Shown here: positions 8,196 through 41,931 of the stretch, in pieces
Position numbering within the stretch: position 1 is the first letter of the stretch
How the letters are laid out: each line of letters starts with the position of its first letter
From: Eledone cirrhosa
Taxonomy: Eukaryota
Reading direction: 5' to 3'
DNA: 64,000 nucleotides
Assembly: GCA_964016885.1 (NCBI GenBank)
Contig: OZ024740.1
Coordinates: 76,074,001-76,138,000 of the forward strand
Notes under the pieces: generated by a model
What the model was told of the DNA's origin: nothing
Database searches by the model: none
Seen by the model: only the letters and a program-made list of their open reading frames with translations
Made by a program: the position numbers and the translations under genes

Positions 8196-8854
8196 TATTA
8201 ACCTAATTAGAATTTTTCAATCTAGCTAACTTGGTCATTTACAATACAAGCGCTTATATGTTTATATTGGTGTTTATCATATATTAATTTATATTAACTT
8301 GTATTTCATGGCTCAGAAATGCTTCTTTCTTTGAGCTAATTAATTGTAAAAGATTGTTTGAGTTTATAACTCTAAATATAATATTTAACGGCTCCTGTTG
8401 TTGAACTAAATTTTAATCCCATATAGAAGGCTGTTATTTCTAGCAGCATGAGTATGGGGCTAGCTAGGAGCTGGAAAACCACGTGCGTTAGCACTTGACT
8501 ACCAGTCCTCCAAAAATATTTCGAGGTGAAACATGCTAATTTCTGGATACCTGTTGATGACCACAGGAATTGGAATTTTTCACTTTTTCAAATTATCGTT
8601 GCGAAACTTATTTGGGTTAGAAATTTAAATTTGTCTGCGGAACAGGTTTGGATTTTGAAATTTAAATTTGTCCAGGTATCACAGTTATTGCCATTATGGG
8701 TTTGTTTTTATTGATTAATTATTTTAAATCGAGACAGGCAAACTGTATTAATCTAATTAGTATTTTTCAATCTAGCTAACTTGGTCATTTACAATACAAA
8801 CGCTTATATGTTTATATTGGTGTTTATCATATATTAATTTATATTAACTTGTAT
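8196..8854 (+). mobile_element. Non-coding terminally redundant module (about 109-bp direct repeat, 550-bp period) ending in (TA)n; probable non-autonomous PLE or pLTR unit
   Basis: 8196-8304 repeated at 8746-8854, then (TA)n at 8852-8892. Confidence 0.55.
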
Positions 8855-9023
8855 ATATATATATATATATATATATATATATATATATATATGCAAAAGT
8901 TTTATTTAAAATGTTGGGTTACAACGAGTAAATATTTTATAACTGATATAAAAGCACTCAACAGATTTTGGAGTATTTTACGATATTAAACAAATGGAAA
9001 TTACATTTATAAAACCATATTTA

Positions 9024-9085
9024 TTTCATTATATATATTTCAGGGATATCATATTAAAAATATGGCATGCCCTCTTCAGACAAAA
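9024..9085 (-). ncRNA. Type I minimal hammerhead ribozyme motif
   Basis: Minus strand: TTTTGT-CTGAAGA-GGG..CATATT ttt AATATG..CCCT-GAAA-TATATA-TA-ATGAAA. Confidence 0.7.
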
Positions 9086-9490
9086 TACAATATATAGACA
9101 GTTTTATAAATAAATTTGACATACCTTAGAGTTTACAACTTCCATTTAAAAAGTTGTTACGGTAGTGAAAATGTTAAGGACGGTTAGAAAGAAAGACGGA
9201 GAAAAAAGGAAAAAAGGAAAAAGAAAAAGAAAGAGAAAAGAAAAAGAAAGAGCGGAAGGTGAAGAAGATGAAGAAATGTATGTAAAGAGAAAACACCAAA
9301 TGAGAGATCTATGAGGGAAGGGGGTACTGTAATTATTCATTTGTTTATTTATTTATTTATTTAGTGTTAAGGATACGGGGAGAAATAAAAACAAAAATAA
9401 ATAAGGAGAGGTAGATCGAGTAATATCTATTATACGAGGTGGGAGAGATAGGGGAGGGGTGATATACAGGAGATAGAGTTAAAACAGCCG

Positions 9491-10898
9491 ATATAAGAGT
9501 AGAAGGGAGGAGGAGAGGAGATATACTTAGAAACAAAAATGATAGTTTTAAAATATTATGTTTCATCAGTCTATCAATTCCTATGAATTATAATGTAAAC
9601 ATCAATATTCATGAATGAGACACATATCAATAATGTGTGAAAAAATAGTGACTATATGTTTAGTTTAAAAATTCATAGGTTTATAATCAAAATCTGAGAT
9701 AAAACCTCAAAAAATACTGGAATACATAGGTATATATGTATTTTCATGAAAAAAGAGAAAAGAGAAAGAAAAAGAGAAGGTTATCTCAAACTGACATTAT
9801 AGACACATGTGAGTTTACATGATCAGCTCTGTAAATTTTTATTTCACATGGAACTCTTCATTGCGTTAAAAAGATTTTACCATACACATAAGTGTACATA
9901 CATATATATATACATAAAATATACATTATTAATAATAATAATATTCTTGCCCCTTCCTACATGGTTATCGTACAAGCATAGAATAGAACAGATATCAATA
10001 TATCAAAATATCAAAAACGCCAAGAATATTTTCCTCCCCCAGAATATCTAGGGCCGTAATAAAAACACAGTGTGCCCAGCATATCAATCAATCCCTCCAA
10101 TTTATTTGACAATATTGCCAAGTTTATTAGAAGCAATCAGAGTCAAAAGCAAACAAAACCAAAATTATTCACCAAACTCATTTAGCAGAAATCATTAAAA
10201 AAAAACTTTAGGATGCTCGGTTGTTCTACAGATGCTCTTATATTTATTCTAGAAGTTTATCTAGCATAAAAATTTTATTCAATAGATTTGGATCATCACC
10301 GTTTTAAGGTAGTTTAATTACATTATTAATTATATATCCATGAAGAAGGTTTAAAGAATTGAAGGAATCGAAAGATTAATCGCCAAGTTTTCTAAAACAA
10401 TTAAAAGTCTTAAGTAAATATATTACATTTTAAACTTATATTTATATTTACAAGTTGAGTTCAATCTATGTCTGCAGCAACTGAATAAATTGGTCCGTAA
10501 ATTAAGGGAATTTTTAGATTTTAGTATAAAGAATATCTCCTCTGCGCAGAGGTCACATGTCTCAGAGGAGGAAACTCACATGTGTCTATAATGTCAGTTT
10601 GAGATAACCTTCTCTTTTTCTTTCTCTTTTCTCTTTTTTCATGAAAATACATATATACCTATGTATTCCAGTATTTTTTGAGGTTTTATCTCAGATTTTG
10701 ATTATAAACCTATGAATTTTTAAACTAAACATATAGTCACTATTTTTTTCACACATTATTGATATGTGTCTCATTCATGAATATTGATGTTTACATTATA
10801 ATTCATAGGAATTGATAGACTGATGAAACATAATATTTTAAAACTACCATTTTTGTTTCTAAGTATATCTCCTCTCCTCCTCCCTTCTACTCTTATAT
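9491..10898. repeat. Inverted repeat of about 325 bp (9491-9816 / 10572-10898), right arm ending in (TA)n
   Basis: Arms are near-perfect reverse complements; ORF track shows the same MKHNILKL peptide on opposite strands. Confidence 0.9.
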
Positions 10899-38784: not shown

Positions 38785-41340
38785 CTAAATATCGCTTCCA
38801 GTTCTTTTCTATGTGTAAGTGGAGAGTGTTTCCAAATTTGTTTAGTACTTTAGTGTAGAGGGTGATTTCCAGGTATCCCATGACTAGGTTTGCATAAGTG
38901 GGGCTGTTTACGTTCCCATAGCGGTCCCAGATTTCTGCCTGTAGGATTTGTTATTGAAAACGAAGTAATTGTTCTCCAAGATAAATTTGAGTCCCTCTAT
39001 CACGAATTCTTTTTTGATGTGTTGTGGGAGTTCATTGTGGTAATTATCCAGCCAGAATTGGATAGCTTCTATTCCTAGGTTGTGGGGGATGTTGGAGTAT
39101 AGGTTGACTACATCGAACGTCACTAGTAGGGTTTGTTCAGAAAGGGGCATATTAGGGAGGTGATTGAGCATATCTAGGTCGTCCCTTATATAGCTTTTGA
39201 TGTGTTTGAGAAAAGGCTTGAGAAGGGTATCAATGAAGTTGCTAAGGCGGTGGGTTTCGCAAGCGGGGCCTGCTATTATAGGTCTTAATTTGAGATCATT
39301 GGGTGAGGGGACATTGATGACTATGGCTGTGGCTTCCTTGCATGCCTTACTTATTAATTCGCTTTTATGTACTTTAGGGATACCGTAGAAAAGGCTGGAT
39401 TTACTTGTGAAGTCTGTGATGAAGCTGAATTCCTTGTTAGTGAGTCCTTCTTTGTATTGTTTGATCAGAGTTTTTAGGTTTCTCATAATTTTCTGTTGAT
39501 TGTAGTGTTCAGCCTTTTCGTAGTATGCTTCGTTTTCCAAAGTGGAGAGCGCTAAGTTGATATAGAATTCTGTCTCCATTAGGACTACTGTACTCCCTTT
39601 ATCAGCCTCTTTAATTGTAATGGTTCTGTCGGTTTTTAATCTATTTAATTCTTCCCATTCTTTCTTGTTGAGGTTTGGCTTGTGTTTTTGTCTGTGCAAG
39701 GAAGTTTGTGATGTGTTCACAGAATTCGTCCAGGATTTTATTTCTACCTTTTGATGGGGTGTAGTTGCTTCTATTTCTGGCTAATGATTCATCCTCATTG
39801 TACTGGTCGAATAGTTCTTCACTGAGTCGTAACTTTCTACAGAAGTCTGTGATGTCTTCCTTCATTTCATAGTAGTTAGGACGTAGTGGGGTCGGTGTGA
39901 ATTTAAGACCTTTGGAGAGTAAGTTGATAAGGTTGGGTGTTGGTTCTGCACTAGTTAGATTGATAATTTTTATTACTCTCGGTTTCTCCACCCTGTCTTG
40001 TGTTATTTTGTTTGCCTGTATCTGTGTGCTGTGTCTAAAAAATGGTTGGGGTAGAGGGGTTGTCTGCTGATGTTAAGTGGTCTCCTGTGTTTGTTATATT
40101 CCTTGTGGTTGTAAAATGTGGTTCGGGTTCGTGGTTGTAGATTGAATGGGGTGTTCCTGTATTGCGAGTATGGATGTGTGTTTCTATGTGCCATTTTGGA
40201 TTGTTTGTTATAGGTGGCCTACGTTGTTGGTTGTATCGTGTGGTGTGGGTTTGTTGTGTATTGTGGAAGCAAGAGTTGAGAAAATGGAAATTACCTTGCT
40301 GTCCCCTTGTAGCGGGGAAGTTGTTACATCTATCATGGTGGTGGTATCTTTTCCCTATGTTTGACGATGAGGCATCCGCGTAGTAGTTGAGTGATTTGGT
40401 ATGGTGTCTCCTTGAAGGAGGAAAGTTGTAAATGTCATTCTGGGGATGATGATTTCTGGGTTTTTGTTCCTTCTTATGGAAGCGAGGTTGAGAAGTTCAT
40501 CTTCGGTGTAGTGCTTCCTTCTTCTTTTGTTAGTAGCTGGGGGTTTGCGAAGTTGTTGTGCGGTTCGGTTATGGGTTTTCCTATTTTTATGAACGGGTTA
40601 TTGGAGGTGTAATCCGTTTGAAAAGTCGATTCATAGTTTAGGAACCAAGCGGCACTTTTTTCCCAGCGTTGAAGGGATTTCAGTTCTTCTCTGTTGCAGT
40701 CCCCTTTCCATAATTTAGAGATCTTCTCTACCTTGGGGCCTTCAGTCTTATTGTTGATTTCCAGGAGGATCTCTTCATCGATGGTTTTGATTTTTTCCTC
40801 ATATGTCTGGGCCCTCAATTTAAGAAGTTCAATTTCTGTCTTCATTTTTTCCAATGCCATTCTTTCCCTAAGGTGTCTTTGAGGTTCGGGTTCATTTGGA
40901 ATGGACTTTATTTGTATTTTACGGGGGAGAGTTAGAGGGGATGAGTTAAGCCATTTTTCATATATCTCCGCTTCGTTGTGATTTTGTATCATCTTCCAGA
41001 ATGAGAACTTTCTGTCTCTGAGGGATTTGTTCCATTTTGGAATTGTTCGAATTTTCATTTTGTATGAATCAATCTCACATGGTTCTTCGTTGCTTTGTTC
41101 TGGGTTGGTAGTAGTGAACATAGTTTGGATAGCATCGCAAAGGTTTTGAAGTTTATCGCCGATATCGGAGGGTTTGTATCCGGTGACGGTTTCCTCATTT
41201 GTGGAGTCAAGTTTGTCGACCAGCACAGATAGGTTGGTGTTAATTTTCTTGAGTTCATGTAGAATCTCTTCATTTGTGTTGATAAAAGTTGTATCTGTTT
41301 TTGTTGGCATTTTCTGTATCTCGTGTGGGGATATGATATT
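38785..41340 (-). mobile_element. Penelope-like element, 5' region and N-terminal half of RT (decayed, 3'-truncated)
   Basis: LLSKGLKFTPTP, IKEADKG, FYGIPKVHK, LRPIIAG, TFDVVNLYSNIP, YRQKSGTAMGT; upstream ORF 40474-41310. Confidence 0.85.
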
Positions 41341-41363
41341 TAAAAGAAATATATATATATATA

Positions 41364-41613
41364 TTGTTATACTTTGGGAGGGTCATGTTGCCAATAAGAA
41401 ACACACGCACCAGTTACTTTCACTTCAATTTATTATAATAAATTTATAAATTTAGGAATTTATAAATCTCCGGTTGGTTGGTTGGTTCCACAACCAGATG
41501 ATTGTTTATATATTGTCAAAGTTCTTTCGTCACACATTCTGTGACCTCTTCGGTGACTGGGGATTCTTTTCTTTGTTTTTGTGCCTCTCCTTTGTTCTGT
41601 CCTACGCCATCTT
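41364..41613 (-). mobile_element. Second solo pLTR fragment of the 23563-29241 family; hammerhead at 41515-41557 with CCGAAGA core
   Basis: Matches about 28991-29241; flanked by (TA)n. Confidence 0.9.
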
Positions 41614-41931
41614 GAAAAACAAGATAGTATATATATATATATATATATATATATATATATATATATATATATATATATATATATATATATATATATATAT
41701 AAGGGATAACAAAATATCGTTATAGGTAATCCAGTTAGAGGTTGTGAATACTTCTTATTATGGATAGTTTTAACGTATGGTGTTGTTTGACTCAACAAGA
41801 GGTTTACGTAGGTGGCGAGTTTATGATTTCACTTGTATTCCTATGTAAGTTTACATACACACACACACACACACACACACACACACACACACACACATAT
41901 ATATATATATATATATATATATATATATATA

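Follow-up and report, generated by a model that had tools for sequence, protein, structure and literature searches.

Hammerhead ribozyme motifs, probably of Penelope-like elements, in a nest of (TA)n insertions of the octopod Eledone cirrhosa

Background

Why should one short region of an octopod genome hold more than a dozen hammerhead ribozyme motifs, most of them beside TA microsatellites? The region, positions 8196-41630, lies in a 64,000-nt stretch of Eledone cirrhosa DNA (assembly GCA_964016885.1, contig OZ024740.1, positions 76,074,001 to 76,138,000 of the forward strand; G+C content 40%), which we call the window and from whose first letter all coordinates are counted. An earlier note, made from the sequence letters, had described about 14 minimal type I hammerheads in about nine families with unrelated helices, and had taken them for one large, diverse system of retroelements, most families of which lacked a coding partner in the window. 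Our analysis leads to a plainer answer: the nest is real but of a known kind, namely that of the hammerheads in the pseudo-long terminal repeats (pseudo-LTRs) of Penelope-like elements (PLEs). Very probably, the 16 motifs that we accept are ribozymes from the 3' pseudo-LTRs of several ordinary PLE families with an endonuclease, present mostly as 5'-truncated or inverted copies inserted successively into (TA)n.

Results and discussion

The hammerhead motifs and their grouping

A strict descriptor of the type I hammerhead (core C/T-TGAN-G/A-A, GAAA, paired helices, UH) matched ten times in the 64 kb, always within 8196-41630 (motifs 9079 to 35779), whereas 200 block dinucleotide shuffles gave 0.21 +/- 0.45 matches (maximum 2); the control that the earlier note had proposed thus yields an approximately 50-fold excess. 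A relaxed descriptor, in which one core mismatch was allowed, gave 16 matches compared with 1.3 in 60 shuffles. These comprise nine of the strict matches, four degenerate relatives of strict ones (21776, 23752, 31780, 41553) and three matches that we reject as chance: 16991 on the minus strand (an antisense overlap), 27135 on the minus strand (coding sequence) and 56908 on the plus strand (a microsatellite). Motif 11167 was found by the strict descriptor alone, as it lies below the raised helix II threshold of the relaxed one, and motifs 30255 (minus) and 38336 (plus), which failed both descriptors, were parsed by hand. The final set comprises 16 motifs (Table 1) but 14 independent insertions: in two cases a pair of motifs represents the inverted arms of one insertion. 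All 15 positions listed earlier carry a motif, and a sixteenth (21776) had been missed. As a set, the type I hammerhead motifs in the window are real; the single degenerate motifs 30255 and 38336 are less certain. The core is intact in 11 motifs and changed in five, and ten have a fully palindromic helix III (G-U pairs allowed). The label "minimal" is apt for part of the set, but not for the four motifs of groups D, F and G, whose helix II arms measure 36-63 nt.

Alignment places the motifs in seven related groups rather than nine families: A with its sister A2 (five motifs), B (two), C (four), D (two), E, F and G. A and A2 have a common 3' terminus, and 3 of their 11 helical pairs differ by compensatory changes; 96% of the cells are paired, against 15-49% when the alignment is slid. 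Both members of group D have a long, irregular helix II arm in common, and their helix I is maintained by two changes, one of them compensatory and the other to G-U. Group C stands out by its CCGG palindrome and by a U3-A8 core, which in one copy is U3-G8.

Polarity towards (TA)n tracts

The motifs have a fixed orientation towards (TA)n tracts. Such a tract lies within 250 nt on the 3' side of 14 of the 16 motifs, at a distance of 45-215 nt, where the background is 18.3% (binomial P 4e-9); after removal of duplicate arms the count is 12 of 14 (P 7e-8). On the 5' side, five of the 16 motifs have a tract within the same distance. The window holds 36 tracts of (TA)6 or longer by a first count, with a density per 10 kb of 9.25 in 8196-41700, compared with 0 in the left flank and 3.1 in the right flank. 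The earlier observation of PLE-type hammerheads lying close to TA tracts is borne out.

Coding partners of the hammerheads

The window contains three PLE reverse transcriptases (PLE-A, PLE-B and PLE-C), and at least three PLE lineages, not one system, contribute to the nest. PLE-A is an endonuclease-bearing (EN+) PLE: it combines a reverse transcriptase (RT) and a GIY-YIG domain with a hammerhead-bearing pseudo-LTR, an inverted 5'-truncated arm and a 3' tail. Its domains follow in the order RT, CX4CxxC linker, GIY-YIG. The Pfam matches for both domains are weak and below cut-off, and the protein has 248 relatives, many with the same domains, of which the best named one comes from Octopus vulgaris (68% identity); none occurs in phages or viral contigs. 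An extension of about 57 nt follows the pseudo-LTR and reaches the TA tract at 23502; such an extension and the inverted truncated arm are as described for PLEs (PMC8557442; PMC11167929). Group A motifs are found in the PLE-A pseudo-LTR and in two solo copies, which agrees with the earlier statement that one hammerhead family belongs to the pseudo-LTR of a coding PLE. The PLE-A family is highly repeated, with 16,364 contigs of one DNA run matching a segment of 537 nt. In one DNA run, contig matches to the pseudo-LTR end at 29047 (198 contigs) and 29093 (87 contigs), i.e. at the hammerhead edges. None of the 40 variants listed (from 108 rows in all) falls in the core or stems, where about 2.5 are expected, a difference of little weight. 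Depth drops at 28841 and 29140 in a restriction-site-associated DNA (RAD) run were considered as boundaries of the solo pseudo-LTR and rejected: both lie at AATT, the reads start at GCATGC, and run X1 lacks the drop. They fit restriction ends, the identity of the enzymes being inferred.

For PLE-B, a word-index search with a piece of the element returned nothing, and an HMMER search found relatives. Two of these (P0245 and P0246) carry the DKT and CxCx5C motifs that define the Hydra clade (PMC8557442). In PLE-B itself the third C of the CxCx5C linker is changed, and the C-terminal CxxC and CxH are both present. The same C-terminal motifs occur in two further endonuclease remnants, which are 74% alike over 76 nt. 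By these motifs PLE-B and both remnants belong to the Hydra clade. Both group B hammerheads lie 1.3-1.4 kb behind the remnants, on the same strand, hence group B most likely represents the 3' end of truncated Hydra-type elements.

To characterize PLE-C, 80 related metagenome loci were fetched and scanned for hammerheads. Nine of them contain one, compared with 0.6 in shuffles. The close two-ORF relatives L001, L003 and L004 (ORF, open reading frame) have a CCGG helix III as in group C (judged by eye for L001 and L003), and one hammerhead copy of L003 has the same GCAA change as subfamily C1. As CCGG-type hammerheads accompany relatives of PLE-C, group C is probably the hammerhead type of PLE-C-like elements. 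The upstream ORF of PLE-C is matched in 7 of the 80 loci, at 26-38% identity and before the RT ORF (194-1375 in L001, 362-1786 in L003), and L001 shows a tandem of ORF1, RT, hammerhead and ORF1. The relatives P0123 and P0124 possess a CX2-5CxxC linker before GIY-YIG, a region absent from PLE-C. Since this linker is that of Neptune/Nematis (PMC8557442), PLE-A and the relatives of PLE-C would, judged by their sequence motifs, be placed with that group. We also observed an 8-mer, CTCGTGTG, complete or with 7 of its letters: in three group C modules it stands close to the 3' end, and PLE-C has it at its 5' start (41316-41349, plus strand), running against the sense of the reading frame.

Altogether 11 of the 16 motifs can be tied to a coding type, four directly, one by homology, two by the upstream Hydra-like endonuclease remnants and four by inference. 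With a direct or inferred partner for three of the seven groups, the earlier claim that most families have none was overstated.

A model of nest growth

An Anolis PLE has been shown to initiate internally, to nick AT-rich sequence on both strands and to cleave at its hammerhead with the help of protein (PMC11167929); the same steps may apply to the window. The GIY-YIG endonuclease would nick a TA tract, and reverse transcription would begin 45-215 nt downstream of the hammerhead; priming at such a nick would produce the observed 3' polarity. If synthesis mostly halts early or folds back, the hammerhead end would be kept most often, and inversions and extensions of 30-60 nt would arise. Each insertion would divide a TA tract into two new targets, so that the nest could grow. 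The weak, mostly palindromic helix III may point to cleavage as dimers or with the help of proteins during processing of tandem transcripts. Most of the single copies in the nest are probably passengers without activity.

Alternative explanations

Several findings weigh against an origin of all 16 motifs from PLE pseudo-LTRs. Four profile searches of the window found no coding remnant for groups D, E, F and G (five motifs), and a TA tract is missing on the 3' side of motif 11167. Behind PLE-B there is no recognisable hammerhead, and the single PLE-A relative in genome contigs (L081) has none in the 400 nt downstream. The link between group C and PLE-C consists of the motif type and one junction, with no shared sequence. 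All compensatory changes between A and A2 come from one divergent sequence (A2), which makes them a weak test. In the Infernal search with Rfam models that had been proposed as a check, the window gave 102 matches at E<=10, mostly microsatellite artefacts, and no hammerhead model among them. Folding z-scores range from -2.1 to +0.7, and for most monomers the lowest-energy structure is not the hammerhead. The last two results, together with the few false matches of the relaxed descriptor, are what would be expected if the motifs were chance matches in AT-rich, hairpin-rich repeat DNA. We consider this very improbable, and for the motif set as a whole it is refuted by the excess over shuffles that preserve local composition, the fixed polarity and the presence of the same motif type behind related PLEs elsewhere, to which the few covarying pairs may add.

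The five orphan motifs could alternatively belong to non-autonomous, retrozyme-like elements with an RNA of their own, moved in trans by PLE proteins, which we regard as possible but doubtful. The lack of nearby coding remnants would agree with it, as would three non-coding partial-tandem units (M1-M3), which end at TA tracts and suggest that short non-coding units do move here; moreover, animal retrozymes have been argued to derive from PLE pseudo-LTRs (10.64898/2026.07.22.740005). However, a retrozyme repeats a unit of 150-400 nt head to tail, each unit having its own hammerhead, and none of the 16 motifs is so placed. M1-M3, for their part, contain no ribozyme by either hammerhead descriptor, and no twister or other relevant ribozyme at E<=10. 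Group B, too, would have counted as an orphan but for the endonuclease remnants 1.3 kb upstream of it, and short 5'-truncated copies would look alike. We prefer to regard the orphans as truncated PLE copies; M1-M3 are probably non-autonomous PLE-type elements.

A junction at a predicted cleavage site

The only unexpected detail of the nest is the junction between a hammerhead-less C1 tail (38665-38781) and the PLE-C frame, to which the tail is fused: the tail starts 0-1 nt from the predicted C1 cleavage site. It raises the idea, as an addition to the explanation by PLE insertion and not as its replacement, that some retrotransposed RNAs owe their 5' end to hammerhead cleavage in vivo. After such a cut, the 3' product would be copied at a TA tract and might be joined to another PLE RNA through template switching or RNA ligation, for which ligation-born chimeras of U6 and LINE-1 offer an analogy. 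A rough estimate puts the coincidence at about 3% by chance for one tail. In addition, two copies of a tail of about 160 nt with different flanks share a common 5' end, and the first 9 nt of one of them equal those of the 3' product predicted for motif 16951. On the other hand, the C1 tail is a single direct case, noticed post hoc among about 12 junctions read by eye, and an ordinary deletion would yield the same junction. Both C1 motifs in the window carry GCAA, the window has no hammerhead belonging to the tail of about 160 nt, and among the 24 of 1050 rows listed there is no pile-up of loose ends at the group A site 29086/29087. For the Anolis PLE, hammerhead mutants still inserted in vitro, where the ribozyme is thus dispensable, and none of the RNA reads started at the site (PMC11167929). 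We consequently hold cleavage as the source of these ends to be rather unlikely. Equally tentative is the proposal that cleavage by PLE hammerheads takes place in vivo and is fossilized in the genome, the cut sites serving as recombination points that shuffle PLE modules. If this were true, the TA nests of octopods would constitute a large natural record of hammerhead cleavage, and truncated copies starting at the cut site throughout the genome would provide direct in vivo evidence from the assembly alone.

Comparison with known systems

Cervera and de la Pena (2014; PMC4209133) described minimal hammerheads in PLE repeats, with many families per genome, mostly as single motifs from truncated PLEs, with opposite-strand pairs, U3-A8 cores and weak cleavage as dimers. 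The motifs in the window resemble theirs in being of type I, with a short helix I, an extra nucleotide before helix II and a palindromic helix III. They differ in the long helix II arms of groups D, F and G, where 7-8 bp were described for metazoan motifs, and in forming TA nests, which the sections of that paper available to us do not treat. A 35-nt loop 2 has been reported in a PLE hammerhead from a spike-moss (PMC8557442).

In the study by Craig et al. (2021; PMC8557442) insertion into (TA)n is reported for Hydra and many Naiad families, and Hydra-1_Obim of Octopus bimaculoides is a hammerhead-bearing PLE that inserts into (TA)n. Shared with the Hydra clade are the (TA)n preference, canonical 3' hammerheads, a U at position 17 (frequent in their table) and the DKT and CxCx5C motifs in relatives of PLE-B; the U-U helix II base of motif 16951 appears in the Hydra table as well. 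None of our motifs matches the listed Hydra-1_Obim hammerhead when compared by eye, and group B differs in its 3' region of 1.3-1.4 kb. PLE-A and the relatives of PLE-C recall Neptune/Nematis in the linker before GIY-YIG, and the latter also in having a separate upstream ORF. A two-ORF Neptune of Fundulus has been published (PMC12602865), which PLE-C resembles in layout. Likeness to non-LTR retrozymes (PMC7229834; 10.64898/2026.07.22.740005) lies in the non-coding modules, the type I hammerheads and the link to PLE pseudo-LTRs. A 2026 annotation of Octopus vulgaris describes hotspots of transposable elements and 31 recently active PLE families, and the word ribozyme does not occur in the available part of its text.

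Motif diversity, solo copies and TA preference had thus been published before, and the system is not new. The nest adds octopod examples to the known association of PLEs with hammerheads, whose function is called unclear in PMC8557442, and it shows the density that a TA-targeted PLE nest can reach (14 hammerhead-bearing insertions in 33 kb).

Table 1. Features of the nest (positions in the window; HMM, hidden Markov model)
Position	Strand	Feature	Basis
8196..8854	+	M1, non-coding 550-nt unit with 109-nt partial repeat, ends at (TA)20	repeat comparison
9022..9087	-	hammerhead B (motif 9079), intact core, TATATA helix III	strict descriptor
10447..10614	-	Hydra-like endonuclease ORF, C-terminal remnant, about 1.4 kb upstream of 9079 hammerhead	HMM E 3e-6
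11161..11247	+	hammerhead G (motif 11167), U3-A8 core, 52-nt helix II arm, 12-nt palindrome; orphan	strict descriptor
16948..16992	+	hammerhead E (motif 16951), U-U at helix II base, bulged helix I extension; orphan	strict descriptor
17230..19545	+	PLE-B, decayed Hydra-like PLE frame (stops, frameshifts)	HMMER, relatives
20372..21042	+	M2, non-coding 599-nt unit with 72-nt partial repeat, ends at (TA)36; truncated copy 38503-38656	repeat comparison
21771..21860	+	hammerhead D (motif 21776), U4C change, 61-nt helix II arm; orphan	relaxed descriptor
21928..22628	-	M3, non-coding ~582-nt unit with ~117-nt partial repeat, ends at (TA)10	repeat comparison
23235..23330	+	hammerhead D (motif 23242), intact, 63-nt helix II arm, inverted partial copy upstream; orphan	strict descriptor
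23560..27076	-	PLE-A body, RT and C-terminal GIY-YIG (736-aa open stretch 23985-26195), 3' pseudo-LTR	Pfam, relatives
23714..23756	-	hammerhead A (motif 23752), A9G change, inside PLE-A pseudo-LTR	relaxed descriptor
27071..29244	+	inverted 5'-truncated PLE-A arm, head to head with PLE-A	26 differences in 2173 nt
29048..29090	+	hammerhead A (motif 29052), intact, U at position 17	strict descriptor
29445..29480	-	hammerhead C (motif 29477), U3-A8 core, CCGG helix III, on 200-nt module flanked by two TA tracts	strict descriptor
29789..29826	-	hammerhead A2 (sister family), compensatory helix II changes, group A 3' terminus	strict descriptor
30223..30258	-	hammerhead C, subfamily C1 (motif 30255), GCAA for GAAA, U3-G8	by hand
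31777..31812	+	hammerhead C1 (motif 31780), inverted arm of 30223..30258 insertion, GCAA, ~30-nt extension before TA tract	relaxed descriptor
33342..33384	-	hammerhead A, intact, UA, in solo pseudo-LTR 33185-33594	strict descriptor
34021..34175	+	Hydra-like endonuclease ORF, another C-terminal remnant, about 1.3 kb before 35416 hammerhead	HMM E 0.003
35411..35465	+	hammerhead B (motif 35416), intact	strict descriptor
35748..35781	-	hammerhead C (motif 35779), U3-A8, CCGG, 2-bp proximal helix I	strict descriptor
35936..36096	-	hammerhead-less ~160-nt tail, ends at short TA run	shares 5' end with 38158-38313 copy
38158..38313	-	second copy of ~160-nt tail, different flanks	sequence match to 35936-36096
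38330..38397	+	hammerhead F (motif 38336), core intact, two mismatches at helix II base; orphan	by hand
38665..38781	-	C1 tail without hammerhead, adjoins PLE-C frame	97% identical to C1 tail
38782..41349	-	PLE-C, two-ORF PLE, RT frame broken off at RYLD motif	HMM, relatives
40474..41382	-	PLE-C upstream ORF, 302 aa, no Pfam match	relatives
41515..41557	-	hammerhead A (motif 41553), U4C change, in partial pseudo-LTR 41361-41614	relaxed descriptor

Other observations

Degenerate hammerheads within M1 and M2 and behind PLE-B were weighed by eye and not accepted. Three words recur in the non-coding modules: TGACCGC (11075, 20595, 22900), CACGTGA (11086, 20634, 30379) and TTTGGCGC (30501, 31522). 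Possibly they are promoter elements of pseudo-LTRs, some of them perhaps E-box and E2F sites. A near-perfect palindrome occupies 36861-37636, with arms of 388 nt, a (CT)n(TA)n(AG)n centre and TA runs at both outer ends; neither this palindrome nor the other inverted pairs (9491-9816/10572-10898 and 32041-32529) contain a hammerhead.

Decayed reverse transcriptases of long interspersed nuclear elements (three related stretches) and a broken Helitron Rep/helicase were found at 1-8181, 12100-15000 and 58700-63260. Just behind the Helitron-like region, and with no tie to the PLE nest, lies a candidate ribozyme similar to that of hepatitis delta virus (63748-63826, plus strand; RF02682, 32.8 bits with a gathering threshold of 44; E 0.03 for the whole window, 3e-4 in a 700-nt search). 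At 15516, 16160, 42511, 45554, 50503, 51302 and 56468 there are copies of a short dispersed repeat that is probably a short interspersed nuclear element.

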